Source: a virus
Length of the DNA stretch: 6,035 nt
Direction: 5' to 3' (one strand)
IMG/VR virus record: IMGVR_UViG_3300045988_002477
Shown here: positions 1,871 through 4,254 of the stretch, in pieces
Layout of the letters: each line of letters opens with the position of its first letter
Position numbering within the stretch: the first letter of the stretch is position 1
Notes under the pieces: model-generated
What the model saw: the letters and a program-made list of their open reading frames with translations, nothing else
Told to the model about the DNA's origin: nothing
Databases searched by the model: none
Translations under genes and position numbers: made by a program

Positions 1871-2860
1871 TCAAACTTTCGGTTCACGCCACTTTTGCCT
1901 TAACTTGTCTTTTTCTTTCTGAATGTTGAGGTATGTTTCATAATCCACGCTGGTGCTTTGTTCGAGGTTGATTAAACTTTGTACTGCGCTCCGTCTGCGT
2001 CTGGCTCTAACCTCTCTCAGCTCGTCAGAATGTGCCTTAAAATAGCTTTCAGTGTCTTGGTTGGTATCTTTATCGATGATTTTGTCAAAATAGCGTGGTG
2101 GCCTTTTCTCGCGGCCTCCTGCACAGATGATGCTGTCTGTTTTTAAGATTTCATCTTTGTGCTCGTTCAGATACTTTTCTCCGATGCCTTTTGACATGAT
2201 TCTGAACTCTGGCTCTCTGCCCTGCATCCAGTATTTTACGCTTTCTTCTGCACCAATTGCTTTTTTGTTCACGTATTGTGCTACGTATGCATAGCTGCCT
2301 GGTTGTGCTGGTGAAAAGTCAATCATGCCTTTCCCCCAGATTTTTTCTAGCCATTCGCTTTTAAAATAGCTGTTGCCCTTTTGGTTCTTATACCATTGAG
2401 CATCCGGTGGCTTTAGCCCGAAAATAATCGCATGGTAGTGCGGCCTTTTTGTTCTGTCCCCATATTCAGCAGCTAGGAAATATTTTATTGGTTTCTTGTA
2501 TGCTTTTCGTAGACGTTTTAAAAATAGCTGCACGTCTCGCTTGCTTACTGTCTGACTTTGAATGCTTCTGTAGCCTTTGAGGATTTCTCCGTATGGAATA
2601 TGCTCATCGTCATACGTTAGTGTCAGAAAGATTACATCTTCCCATTCTTTTGCTTCTAGCTCAATTCTGGTTGCCCATTGGTCAGCCATTTGTTTTCGGC
2701 AATACTCGCATTTACCGCATGGTAATAGCGCGAATTTTCCTTTTTTGACACCGTCCATGATGTCCGTTTGCAGCCCTTGCTTTGATAGGTTTTCCAGACT
2801 TCCCCATAACTGTGGTTTTTTCGTGTCCATCTGAAATACTAATGGTTTTGTACATGGCAT
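1871..2860 (-). CDS. Rolling-circle replication initiation protein (Microviridae VP4 / phiX174 protein A analogue, HUH endonuclease)
   Basis: The 329-aa protein has an N-terminal MPCTKPL and the LPCGKCEYCR cysteine cluster typical of gokushovirus VP4. RCR motif I is FLTLTY (78-83), motif II is PHYHAIIFG (140-148), and motif III is the tyrosine pair in YAYVAQYVNKK (190-200). Confidence 0.95.
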   Translation of the reverse strand: MPCTKPLVFQMDTKKPQLWGSLENLSKQGLQTDIMDGVKKGKFALLPCGKCEYCRKQMADQWATRIELEAKEWEDVIFLTLTYDDEHIPYGEILKGYRSIQSQTVSKRDVQLFLKRLRKAYKKPIKYFLAAEYGDRTKRPHYHAIIFGLKPPDAQWYKNQKGNSYFKSEWLEKIWGKGMIDFSPAQPGSYAYVAQYVNKKAIGAEESVKYWMQGREPEFRIMSKGIGEKYLNEHKDEILKTDSIICAGGREKRPPRYFDKIIDKDTNQDTESYFKAHSDELREVRARRRRSAVQSLINLEQSTSVDYETYLNIQKEKDKLRQKWREPKV

Positions 2861-2867
2861 TTTGTTC

Positions 2868-2900
2868 CCGGCACAAGCTTCCTTGTCTATCTTGTGCCGG
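2868..2900 (-). promoter_or_regulatory. Perfect 10-bp inverted repeat (CCGGCACAAG / CTTGTGCCGG) with a 13-nt loop, ending 7 nt upstream of the rep ATG
   Basis: 2868-2877 is the exact reverse complement of 2891-2900. On the mRNA strand the loop AUAGACAAGGAAG holds the only SD-like sequence, about 17 nt from the AUG. A TATAAT (2923->2918, minus strand) lies just upstream. Confidence 0.7.
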
Positions 2901-2934
2901 TTGACACCTCGCTTTCTATTATATTAACTTGTTG

Positions 2935-2952
2935 TAGTAGTAGTAGTAGTAG
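2935..2952. repeat. (TAG)6 trinucleotide microsatellite, (CTA)6 on the coding strand
   Basis: Direct reading shows tagtagtagtagtagtag immediately abutting the first TGTTGAA repeat. It occupies the position where a -35 element for the TATAAT at 2918-2923 would lie. Confidence 0.95.
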
Positions 2953-3119
2953 TGTTGAAACTGTTGAAAACTCGTTTTTTTAACGTTGCTATGTTTATTT
3001 ATTGCTTTTTTGCCTGTTGAAAATTTTGTTGAAAACTTGTTGAATTGTTGAAAGTTCGTCATTATGACGGATTTTGTTGTGCACTTTTGTGTTGAAAACC
3101 TGTTGAAAGTGTTGAAAAC
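2953..3119 (+). repeat. Iteron-like array of nine same-orientation copies of TGTTGAA(A)(A)(C) in three clusters
   Basis: The copies are at 2953-2961 TGTTGAAAC, 2962-2971 TGTTGAAAAC, 3015-3024 TGTTGAAAAT, 3027-3036 TGTTGAAAAC, 3038-3045 TGTTGAAT, 3046-3054 TGTTGAAAG, 3090-3099 TGTTGAAAAC, 3101-3109 TGTTGAAAG and 3110-3119 TGTTGAAAAC. A degenerate TGTTGTG lies at 3075-3081. Spacing within a cluster is 8-12 nt, about one helical turn. Confidence 0.9.
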
Positions 3120-3133
3120 TTAAGTTTTCCACA
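3114..3133. promoter_or_regulatory. 16-nt perfect palindrome GAAAACTTAAGTTTTC (3114-3129) overlapping a DnaA-box match TTTTCCACA (3125-3133)
   Basis: The palindrome was read directly and is formed by the last iteron plus an inverted half-copy. TTTTCCACA fits the relaxed DnaA-box consensus TT(A/T)TNCACA at 9/9 positions. Confidence 0.6.
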
Positions 3134-3191
3134 TAGGATGCTCCTGACATAAATGTCGTGAGCATCTGACCACAGTATATATTTTGAGCTA

Positions 3192-3226
3192 GCACGCGCG
3201 CGCGCGCTTCGCGTGCGTGCGTGCAC
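3192..3226. repeat. Alternating purine-pyrimidine tract: GCAC(GC)6 - TTC - (GCGT)3GCAC; an imperfect palindrome with Z-DNA potential
   Basis: There are two 16-nt perfectly alternating R-Y runs (3192-3207 and 3211-3226). On the displayed strand they fold into 13 pairs, including three G-T wobbles, with a 3-nt loop. On the complementary strand those wobbles become A-C mismatches. Confidence 0.8.
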
Positions 3227-3259
3227 TTTGCCTTATATGCTGTTTGCACTTTAGCCACA

Positions 3260-3294
3260 GCGACAGTCCCCCCGCGTAGGGGGGGCGTTGTCGC
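3260..3294. repeat. Hairpin A: GCGACAG-T-CCCCCC / loop GCGTA / GGGGGG(G)-C-(GT bulge)-TGTCGC
   Basis: C6 (3268-3273) pairs with G6-7 (3279-3285), and 3260-3266 pairs with 3286 plus 3289-3294 around a 2-nt bulge. The left arm 3259-3268 can alternatively pair with 3359-3368 (GACTGTCGCT) as a perfect 10-bp long-range helix. Confidence 0.75.
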
Positions 3295-3340
3295 AAGGGG
3301 GGGACGAAAAACAGCGGCAATGTTTTTCGTCCCCCCTTGC
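3293..3340. repeat. Hairpin B: 16-bp perfect stem (GGGGGGACGAAAAACA / TGTTTTTCGTCCCCCC) with the 7-nt loop GCGGCAA; extendable to 20 bp with one bulged G
   Basis: 3298-3313 is the exact reverse complement of 3321-3336. With G3297 bulged, 3293-3296 also pairs with 3337-3340. Confidence 0.9.
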
Positions 3341-3417
3341 TTTATATGATTATGTTTTGACTGTCGCTTGTCTGGTGCCCCTGTGTTGGGGAACCTTAGC
3401 TTTGCGCGGAGGGGTTT

Positions 3418-4254
3418 TTAATTTCCTCTGTATGCGTTGAATGCGTCCATGTTTGGCATGATTGGCACTCTTTGGTTGTATTTTTTGAAGTTTCCTGCTG
3501 TTTCTTTGGTTGCTTTTTTGGCTTTTTCACCCGCTTTTGCAAGTCCTGAGCCTAACTTGTTAGCTGCATAGCTGTATTGTTGTACCTGTTTTGCGCTTGA
3601 GCTTGCTAGCTCGCTTGCTGACTGTTCCCAGGTTTTTGCAGCCTTATATTGTTTTGCGCTGGTACTCTGCTTTGCTAGCTGTAAGTATTTGTCCGCTAGT
3701 TCTGCCGTGTTGTTGCCGTATTCGTACATTGCCGATACACTTGCTGCTTGTGCGCTCTGTTGGTTATAACTTTGGCTTCCGATGTTTGCAGATGCTCCGC
3801 TTGTTGAGCTTGTCGCTCCGTTGGTTGCCGCTAGAATAGGGTTGATGCCAGCTGCAATCATGTCTTTTACAGTATCTTGATAGGCTGTTCCCCGCATTTC
3901 TTTTTGGAAAGCTCTTTCAGCTGCTGCTTCTGCGCTGTTGTATTTCTTGGCGCTTGCTTGGCTTCCTGCGTTTGCGAGGTTGCTTAATAGTCCGCTCATC
4001 ATTTGCAGTGCGTTTGCGGTGTTTACGCTGTTTTGATTTCCGAACATTGTGACGCCTGTTGGTGTACTAATTTGCGTTGCACCAATCTGCTGCGGTGCCG
4101 TTAAGCTTCCGGTTGTGCTCTCGCTACCTGTGCTGGTCTCGTTGCCTGATCCTTGGCTGTTTTTGGCGCTGCTCTGGTTGCTGCTTGTTGCGATGTTGGT
4201 TAACATGCCTAGTCCTTGCATGATGTACGGTAGTAACTGTAACAATGTCTCCAT
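3418..4254 (-). CDS. DNA pilot / minor capsid protein (Microviridae VP2, phiX174 protein H analogue)
   Basis: The 278-aa protein has S/T/Q/N/A-rich low-complexity flanks around the conserved core YNSAEAAAERAFQKEMRGTAYQDTVKDMIAAGINPILA, which is characteristic of microvirus VP2. It lies directly downstream of VP1. Confidence 0.9.
   Translation of the reverse strand: METLLQLLPYIMQGLGMLTNIATSSNQSSAKNSQGSGNETSTGSESTTGSLTAPQQIGATQISTPTGVTMFGNQNSVNTANALQMMSGLLSNLANAGSQASAKKYNSAEAAAERAFQKEMRGTAYQDTVKDMIAAGINPILAATNGATSSTSGASANIGSQSYNQQSAQAASVSAMYEYGNNTAELADKYLQLAKQSTSAKQYKAAKTWEQSASELASSSAKQVQQYSYAANKLGSGLAKAGEKAKKATKETAGNFKKYNQRVPIMPNMDAFNAYRGN

Follow-up and report, generated by a model that had tools for sequence, protein, structure and literature searches.

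A modular hairpin cassette in human-gut gokushoviruses carries a motif found in two unrelated families of single-stranded DNA phages

Microviruses and inoviruses both need a host-dependent conversion of their single-stranded DNA (ssDNA) into double-stranded DNA, and the initiation of the complementary strand has been described in detail for only a few coliphages (M13, G4 and phiX174). In the ssoA elements of rolling-circle plasmids, the conserved parts are the RSB and CS-6, a TAGCGT sequence located in a loop. The ssiA and ssiB elements of IncQ plasmids (RSF1010) are priming signals for the RepB' primase; ssiA is 40 nt long, with a 5' CCTTTC tail that is bound by RepB', a hairpin at nt 7–27 and a 3' tail that is single-stranded and holds a GTG start; its primer starts at T32 (PMC8567376). 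Among microviruses, hairpin I of the origin of G4, St-1 and alpha3 holds the mini-hairpins GCGAAAGC and GCGTTAGC (PMC13037366). Xanthomonas inoviruses, in turn, have a hairpin as packaging signal, which tolerates inversion, lies near or within gII, and is made up of a GGN(A/-)CCG(C/T)G stem and a loop in which a T and a C are essential (bioRxiv 10.1101/2023.12.30.573655). Here we describe a hairpin cluster from a gokushovirus of the human gut, where such phages are very abundant; it resembles these systems in some respects and differs from them in others. The cluster is genuine and goes beyond an ordinary set of hairpins, and the function that we discuss for it is a candidate only.

The window analysed here, the whole 6,035 nt of IMG/VR record IMGVR_UViG_3300045988_002477, is the genome of a human-gut gokushovirus (Microviridae), and the nearest GenBank records come from human-gut gokushoviruses as well. 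Every gene lies on the minus strand: VP1 (5984–4293; Phage_F match, E = 3e-147), VP2 (4254–3418, with its stop codon at 3418–3420), VP4/Rep (2860–1871; PF23343) and, listed after VP4/Rep, an M15 peptidase, VP5 and VP3. VP2 and VP4 are separated by an intergenic region of 557 nt (3417–2861). The packaged strand of Microviridae is the coding strand, which we take to be the minus strand of the window. This strand is rich in A (36.5%, as against 16.8% T), and a doubt over the identity of the packaged strand was dropped because the skew resembles that of the isolated gokushovirus phiMH2K (A 34.8%, T 19.1%), an A-rich coding strand being normal in gokushoviruses. No primase gene or domain was found among the window's proteins, and a scan of 5,426 complete E. 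coli genomes for E. coli as the host gave zero DNA matches.

The original prediction, made from the letters of the window, had placed a cluster of stable hairpins in this intergenic region, and all of the repeats and pairings that it described are present at the coordinates it gave. The cluster exists as part of a discrete, accessory, non-coding cassette of 283 nt (3135–3417), which runs from a GTTGAAA repeat block to the VP2 stop codon and contains five hairpins, two of which (3137–3166 and 3192–3224) the prediction had omitted. The 93% identity between the window and its closest genomes, L001 and L002, ends at position 3134, and in these genomes about 62 nt with a terminator hairpin replace the cassette. 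The hairpin, AAAAAAGGGGGATG-TTTTGC-CATCCCCC followed by a T-rich stretch, is an intrinsic terminator directly after VP2 on the coding strand. In an allele survey of 56 relatives retrieved via VP4, a terminator with a covarying stem was found at the cassette site in 36, and the cassette itself at the window's position in nine, in addition to L046, which carries an internally deleted cassette there. Relatives with 80–82% VP4 (the L003, L004, L012 and L022 types) have the cassette across the repeat block, adjoining VP4, with unchanged orientation. Presence or absence of the cassette varies among relatives that are 93–95% identical; there are two insertion sites and one orientation, and sub-modules can be deleted, as seen in L046 and in L014, which is 99% identical to the window and has its CG hairpin (described below) deleted. 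Given the allele survey, the placement on the alternate side of the repeat block and the loss of the CG hairpin from L014, we conclude that the cassette is modular, mobile inside the intergenic region, and dispensable. The cassette ends in a conserved tail, TTAGCTTTGCGCGGAGGGG (3396–3417), with 91–96% identity across cassette types. This tail accompanies hairpin C even where the cassette lies on the opposite side of the repeat block: it is kept in L003 and L004, distant from the VP2 stop, and also in the internally deleted L046. Small ORFs over the cassette (3288–3440 on the plus strand, 3189–3320 on the minus strand) were rejected, as they are unconserved and the hairpin B stem is rewritten among relatives. 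Rfam and tRNA scans of the entire window, the former at E up to 1 on either strand, returned nothing, and membership of an Rfam RNA family was rejected since no covariance model matched at this threshold.

As DNA, the region 3130–3420 folds far beyond its shuffled controls on both strands (z = -8.05 for the minus and -7.98 for the plus strand; -8.96 for the minus strand as RNA), with 0/200 shuffles equalling the native folding energy, and its structures are kept among relatives with compensatory changes, so that the prediction withstood the refuting condition that it had named, a lack of structural conservation or covariation in relatives. The sequence-conserved core of the cassette is hairpin A with its flank, which reads GCGAC-AG-(N)Cn-loop-Gn(N)-CG-NN-GTCGC-AA-Gn on the plus strand (3258–3303). 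The two arms of hairpin A, 3260–3273 and 3281–3294, are 79% complementary and fold into a GCGAC/GTCGC stem and a C6/G6 stem, the latter capped by a C-GTA-G triloop, with an internal loop and its bulged CG in between. On the window, a covariance model of hairpin A (R1) gives 52.8 bits for the plus strand (E = 4.5e-9) and 11.5 bits for the minus strand, and in an alignment of 19 variants (A1) 88.6% of the cells are paired, compared with 39–50% when the partners are slid. The sequence GTCCCCCC is present twice (3266–3273 and 3329–3336), each copy being able to pair with GGGGGGAC at 3298–3305; this predicted alternative pairing is possible in the window, but it is unconserved past the general layout of C-runs and G-runs.

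A second predicted alternative is a three-way junction. The arm 3259–3268 is perfectly complementary to GACTGTCGCT at 3359–3368. The long-range helix formed by these arms competes with hairpin A's own local stem, and the junction that it closes holds the hairpin A apex and hairpin B. This conformer, an alternative in the original prediction, is the predicted minimum-energy structure: at -35.3 kcal/mol against -33.8 kcal/mol for tandem A and B (plus-strand DNA) the two are nearly iso-energetic, with the junction slightly favoured, by 1.5–3 kcal/mol (DNA). In 11 cassettes 100% of the cells of the long-range helix are paired, and one compensatory pair backs it, being A-T in the window and L014, G-C in seven cassettes and G.T in two. 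In L049-type cassettes, a G.A mismatch breaks the competing local stem in 8/10 sequences.

Hairpin B (3293–3340) consists of a G-run/C-run clamp, a variable upper stem and a 7-nt loop (3314–3320). Its perfect 16-bp stem (3298–3313 with 3321–3336) had been predicted together with an extension to 20 bp; the latter is present as GCAA/TTGC (3293–3296 with 3337–3340) and needs one bulged G in the G7 run. The upper stem is fully rewritten in each cassette type and yet complementary, the clamp being retained; examples are ACGAAAAACA, CCGCAAA, CGCAAA, TCGCAA, CCGTCAA, CCGTTAAC and TTGAC, and nine gut-lineage variants with differing upper stems all have z between -5.7 and -7.3. The loop reads GCGGCAA in the window and TTGCCGC in L014, an exact reverse complement, and because of this reversal the pair of genomes shows that the inverted repeat undergoes hairpin-mediated or recombinational flipping in nature. 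Hairpin C (3374–3395), the weaker third hairpin of the prediction, pairs GGTGCCCC at 3374–3381 with GGGGAACC at 3388–3395, with one G.A mismatch. Its counterpart in L003 is a perfect GGTTCCCC/GGGGAACC, and that in L004 is GGTGTCCC/GGGAAACC, with a compensatory change of C-G to T-A. The junction hairpin, GATGCTCCTGACAT/ATGTCGTGAGCATC (3137–3166; 14 nt, 86% complementary), is present in the window and L014 only, and has a C-G pair in L014 versus T.G in the window. Lastly, the alternating purine-pyrimidine (CG/TG) hairpin at 3192–3224 is an optional sub-module that is present in seven sequence variants. Read on the plus strand (T 36.5%, A 16.8%), its non-Watson-Crick cells are G.T in 23/23 cases, with zero A.C. 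Three variable positions of the long-range helix are G.T on this T-rich strand too, whereas wobble pairs in hairpins A, B and C are seen on either strand.

Outside the window, too, the hairpin A motif reads GCGAC-AG-(N)C4-6-loop-G4-6(N)-CG-NN-GTCGC-AA-G4-7. Pattern scans of IMG/VR yielded it in 17 contigs, all of them ssDNA phages (Microviridae or Inoviridae): nine gut gokushoviruses, three other microviruses and five inovirus prophages with Zot and Rep_trans. Among 185,579 species genomes there were six matches, two of them chance-like and four convincing, namely a microvirus prophage of Sinirhodobacter ferrireducens, an inovirus prophage of Xanthomonas translucens and two Nitrospirae contigs, for which Pfam and PHROGs of the context were uninformative. 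With so few matches, two in prophages and two chance-like, host genomic palindromes of the REP/BIME type were rejected. Additional metagenomic microviruses carry the motif and Xanthomonas phage Xf109 has a variant form of it; the motif recurs in five microvirus lineages beyond the gut gokushoviruses and in several Xanthomonas-type filamentous phages. The search patterns did not specify AG, the CG bulge or the AA-G-run, and these positions are conserved nonetheless: AG and the CG bulge are found in 8/8 metagenome matches, and AA with a G-run follows the motif in 4/4 genome-scan matches deemed genuine, a feature that itself helped to define them as genuine. R1 searches of terminator-allele genomes, G4 (L041) and phiX174 (L042) found no copy, for G4 at E up to 10, and a text search of the literature for the motif sequence gave unrelated results only. 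The Rep proteins of microviruses (PF23343) differ from those of inoviruses (Rep_trans), and so do the capsids. The confinement of the motif to ssDNA phages of two such unrelated families is what would be expected of a signal used in the single-stranded stage, and points to a signal of this kind.

The coding (packaged) strand carries the motif in five lineages of microviruses, in three divergent ones of inoviruses and in Xf109; in inoviruses the motif is invariably located 450–1100 nt downstream of zot, at the end of the long structural operon. The gut gokushovirus lineage alone is inverted, with the motif on the complement of the packaged strand, consistently over five cassette subtypes and two insertion sites. 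Since 9/10 lineages agree on the packaged strand (two-sided binomial p about 0.02), orientation matters in general, and the gut lineage is an exception. The hairpin stems are identical on either strand; inversion puts the CG bulge on the opposite side, reverses the order of A and B, and changes the flanking AA-G-run. Along the packaged strand of the gut lineage the hairpins run C', B', A', with the CG bulge on the 5' arm. The motif strand of the window thus complements the packaged strand, and simple sequence-specific recognition on virion DNA fails for this genome.

A signal of the single-stranded stage would best explain the restriction to ssDNA phages, the preference for the packaged strand and the sso/ssi-like behaviour of the cassette. 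Our best reading, which we put forward tentatively on these comparative grounds, is that the cassette may be an exchangeable single-strand initiation or structural element of ssDNA phages. As an optional, horizontally exchanged and non-coding element, it would fold into G/C-clamped hairpins whenever the DNA is single-stranded. Hairpin A, with its bulged CG followed by the AA-G-run, would be recognised by its sequence in a step that is unique to the single-stranded stage, the likeliest such step being the start of complementary-strand synthesis, such that the cassette would act as a single-strand initiation signal akin to the sso/ssi cassettes. SSB would be held off the site by the CG hairpin and by hairpins B and C, acting as structural clamps. 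The data establish the cassette nature, the structures, their covariation, the restriction to ssDNA phages and the strand preference of the other carriers; priming as the recognised step, and any enzyme that would recognise the motif, are inferred. In the inverted gut lineage, the cassette may act by structure alone, perhaps with the invariant 5'-CTG-3' that adjoins the G-run (3266–3264, minus strand); alternatively, it may act on the other strand or as RNA. A more specific proposal, possible but doubtful in our judgement, is that hairpin A and its AA-G-run are an undescribed single-stranded-stage signal that is widespread in ssDNA phages, has been exchanged horizontally between Microviridae and Inoviridae, is read by a conserved bacterial factor (e.g. 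a priming enzyme), and was captured in inverted form, together with clamp hairpins, in the gut lineage. The original prediction had likened the hairpins to the complementary-strand origins of M13, G4 and phiX174. This origin hypothesis is partly supported: the folds are conserved and the motif is limited to ssDNA phages, but the cassette is dispensable, its motif is inverted here, neither G4 nor phiX174 has an R1 match, and the hairpins lack sigma-70-like promoter elements. Moreover, 36/56 close relatives are without the cassette and therefore start the complementary strand without it; other candidate origin elements, a hairpin-bearing block of DnaA-box-like repeats and a hairpin that directly precedes VP4, are found in all relatives.

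Other roles have to be weighed against this reading. The location of the cassette at the 3' end of the VP1-VP2 mRNA would suit a non-canonical terminator or a block to 3' exonucleases that replaces the intrinsic terminator of the relatives: 36/56 of these have a bidirectional terminator with a covarying stem at the same locus (A-run-GGGGGATG-loop-CATCCCCC-T-run), cassette genomes have no other terminator between VP2 and VP4, and the inovirus motif, too, stands at the end of a long structural operon, 450–1100 nt past zot. The sister-genome terminator likewise lies right after the VP2 stop and has a G/C-rich stem, but it is a single 8-bp hairpin between an A-run and a T-run, whereas the cassette has 283 nt, five hairpins and no T-run on the coding strand. 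Indeed, none of the hairpins is followed by a U-tract on the minus strand, in line with the original prediction that this is not a canonical terminator, and a scan of the minus strand from 2700 to 3600 gave no terminator-like site; the cassette was rejected as an intrinsic terminator, for which the sister allele qualifies. A role in termination would also leave unexplained why the hairpin A sequence, the bulge and the AA-G-run are kept across phages of unrelated hosts and why the motif occurs solely in ssDNA phages, and the RNA of the gut lineage would bear the reverse complement of the other carriers' transcript. We regard this explanation as unlikely. The orientation paradox would disappear if the motif were a structured RNA with its own promoter, which tolerates inversion; most carriers would then have it as part of an mRNA, and gut gokushoviruses as an antisense non-coding RNA, with a conserved RNA-binding factor to recognise it. 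Non-Watson-Crick positions on the motif strand are G.T (the 23/23 cells of the CG hairpin and three positions of the long-range helix), this strand folds slightly better as RNA (-64.4 versus -61.9 kcal/mol), and a sigma-70-like promoter lies upstream on the plus strand (3112–3139). That promoter, however, is peculiar to the window's junction and missing in other cassette arrangements, the G.T excess is explicable by a T-rich, A-poor plus strand, and the wobble pairs of hairpins A, B and C fall on both strands. As there is, in addition, no Rfam family at E up to 1 and an RNA role leaves the restriction to ssDNA phages unexplained, we find a structured RNA improbable.

An idea that we rate as hardly more probable than an RNA is that of a recombination-prone palindromic passenger, selfish or structural (cruciform or Z-DNA), which spreads without benefit to the phage and owes its complementarity to template switching. 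Its variability would fit, including presence and absence, translocation, inversion of the whole cassette relative to other carriers, the flip of the hairpin B loop and the deletions in L014 and L046, and so would the alternating CG/TG tracts, which are prone to form Z-DNA. Template switching cannot, however, explain why AG, the CG bulge and the AA-G-run, which are unpaired in hairpin A, are conserved in very distant phages; orientation across lineages is non-random, and transposase, terminal repeats or target duplications were not seen. Finally, the prediction had included a G-quadruplex formed by the two G7 runs, with an i-motif on the other strand, and a switch of this kind now deserves very little credence. 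The extended pattern (G3-N1-G3-N11-G3-N1-G3) is present in the window, but the standard one (loops up to 7 nt) is absent, and of nine gut-lineage variants the window alone fits when loops of as many as 12 nt are allowed: the other eight, including the 99%-identical L014, score 0/8, so this part of the prediction is unconserved. G-run lengths range from 4 to 7 among the gut-lineage variants, two distant carriers fit the pattern solely via extra G-runs, and both G-runs are locked in hairpins that total about -34 kcal/mol.

If the proposal of an undescribed single-stranded-stage signal were true, the motif would be the first sequence-defined handle on the start of the complementary strand in non-model ssDNA phages. 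A motif of about 45 nt that is common to two unrelated ssDNA phage families, is missing from other viruses and resides on a swappable cassette is a clonable candidate, and can also serve to trace recombination among the genomes of ssDNA phages. The terminator/cassette polymorphism among genomes that are 93–95% identical amounts to a ready natural experiment.

The cassette was also compared with known systems. To our knowledge, it has no sequence likeness to, or partner elements of, a dif/XerCD site, an integron attC, IS200/IS605 ends or a CRISPR-repeat mimic. An RNA-polymerase origin of the Ff (M13) type was rejected because the hairpins contain no sigma-70-like -35/-10 elements, the sole promoter-like site in a scan of 2700–3600 being 3112–3139, outside them; stem 1 (GCGACA) agrees with TTGACA at 4/6 positions, and the full TTGACA is found in Xf109 only. 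Similarity to a phiX174-type PriA primosome assembly site was likewise rejected, given the missing R1 match in phiX174 and a comparison by eye with its F-G intergenic site; as PriA sites have no known consensus, there may still be a functional analogy. The primase-dependent origin of G4, St-1, alpha3 and phiK resembles the cassette in being a GC-rich hairpin cluster in a microvirus intergenic region. On the motif strand, the hairpin A apices (C-GTA-G, C-GTTA-G and C-GCTA-G) are of the GNA/GNNA type, as in hairpin I of G4, St-1 and alpha3 (PMC13037366). In the gut lineage, however, the mini-hairpin apex is on the non-packaged strand, and the loops are unconserved across the wider family. The packaged strand does have a CTG (3266–3264) directly after the G-run, but this lies inside the internal-loop/stem region, and the conserved motif reads on the other strand. 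With the oric sequence read directly and R1 finding nothing in G4, a G4-type origin defined by similarity to oric hairpins I–III was rejected. The packaging signal of Xanthomonas filamentous phages is, like hairpin A, a short GC-rich DNA hairpin in inovirus genomes; the experimentally mapped signal is a different hairpin, with a stem and loop unlike the motif, and microviruses, unlike these phages, use no such signal.

Further likenesses are to plasmid elements. Both ssiA and hairpin A have a C-run in the 5' arm, a G-run in the 3' arm and then CG and a GT-containing stretch, and the inovirus form of this hairpin, CCCCC-ACCCGAA-TGGGGGCGC, agrees with ssiA over three blocks that total 21 nt (PMC8567376). 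We treat this resemblance, like that of the apex loops to the G4-type origins, as a lead and not as membership. The CCTTTC tail is absent from hairpin A, and its 3' stretch is paired (GTCGC with GCGAC), whereas that of ssiA is single-stranded. Membership of the IncQ ssiA/ssiB group was rejected, as only the hairpin clamp and CG are common to both, R1 scores 6.1 bits on ssiA, and the window has no RepB'-like primase. With the sso elements (ssoA, ssoU and others) of rolling-circle plasmids there is no sequence match, the sole likeness being that some loops resemble CS-6 in part, as does TAGCGC in L003 when read on the packaged strand; the gut lineage is oriented opposite to the other carriers. 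In behaviour, sso and plasmid ssi elements are like the cassette: they are non-coding, strongly folded, exchangeable, orientation-sensitive, losable without killing the replicon, and common to otherwise unrelated replicons.

Hairpin B and its neighbours in the cassette, the optional non-coding hairpin cluster next to the VP2 stop codon, vary even between very close genomes. The loop of hairpin B (3314–3320) reads GCGGCAA in the window versus TTGCCGC, its exact reverse complement, in the gut relative L014 (IMGVR_UViG_3300045988_000136). These two genomes are 99% identical and share identical hairpin B stems; the loop has undergone flip-flop inversion between the two arms of the 16-bp inverted repeat. 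L014 has also undergone deletion of the CG hairpin between CCACAG direct repeats. In the window this hairpin (3192–3224) is built from two 16-nt tracts of alternating purines and pyrimidines and so has the potential to adopt Z-DNA. In another relative, L046 (IMGVR_UViG_3300003146_000076), an internal deletion in the cassette joins the hairpin A loop to that of hairpin B; it removes both G-runs but leaves the long-range helix, hairpin C and the tail in place.

In other genomes, namely L001 (300–335) and 36 other relatives, the place of the cassette is taken by a bidirectional intrinsic terminator, an 8-bp G/C stem flanked by an A-run and a T-run. The stem covaries among the relatives, occurring as GGGGGATG, GGGGGGTG and GGGAGATG. 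The 10.7-kb contig L057 (IMGVR_UViG_3300045988_004182) proved to be two different gokushovirus genomes concatenated, one of which has the terminator allele and the other a fifth subtype of the cassette.

The conserved hairpin A motif has its own neighbours outside the gokushoviruses. In inoviruses, hairpin A is adjoined by a second hairpin, GGGGTGTAGGGGCAGCGCCCCTAC (8735–8760 in L010 and 1213–1236 in L023), which is also found in many filamentous phages of Xanthomonas and Stenotrophomonas; at least 54 Xanthomonas plasmids carry it too. In L026, the sole plasmid examined, it is located at 2501–2525, within an extended non-coding region on the upstream side of an antirestriction gene. Three further sequences (L005, L019 and L032) each contain two different inovirus prophages in convergent orientation, with the motif in the second prophage each time. 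Lastly, the motif is accompanied by a B-like hairpin in two contigs from Nitrospirae metagenome-assembled genomes (L028, 1541–1581; L031, 2201–2241), and no recognisable phage genes were found on these two contigs.

The remainder of the intergenic region contains additional candidate elements. The plus strand carries eight copies of GTTGAAA within 2954–3117, against an expectation of 1.2 for the whole window. On the coding strand, five of the eight take the form TTTTCAACA, which differs from the DnaA-box consensus TTWTNCACA at a single position. At 3125–3133 there is a perfect TTTTCCACA, which forms a hairpin (3110–3121/3122–3133). The repeat block was found in all relatives, though L004, a relative that keeps it, is missing the DnaA-box hairpin. 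The block as a whole (2954–3133) could be either a DnaA-box hairpin priming site of the ABC-primosome type or a set of Rep iterons, and under either reading it is an alternative candidate for the universal complementary-strand origin.

Closer to VP4, the coding strand has a perfect 10-bp hairpin (2868–2900) that separates GAGGTG, which resembles a Shine-Dalgarno sequence, from the ATG of VP4. Covariation is seen here among the relatives, with CCGGCACAAG, CTGGCCCAAG and TTGGCGCAAG in one arm and the matching sequence in the other. The hairpin may regulate VP4 or represent a split ribosome-binding site. An origin-like sequence at 2916–2934, directly adjoined by a (GTA)6–7 trinucleotide repeat (2931–2953) whose length differs among relatives, is conserved in all relatives and forms one boundary of the second insertion site of the cassette. 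We consider it a candidate nick site for VP4. On the minus (coding) strand it reads CAACAAG-TTAATATAATAG, a layout resembling that of the phiX174 viral-strand origin, CAACTTG|ATATTAATAAC.
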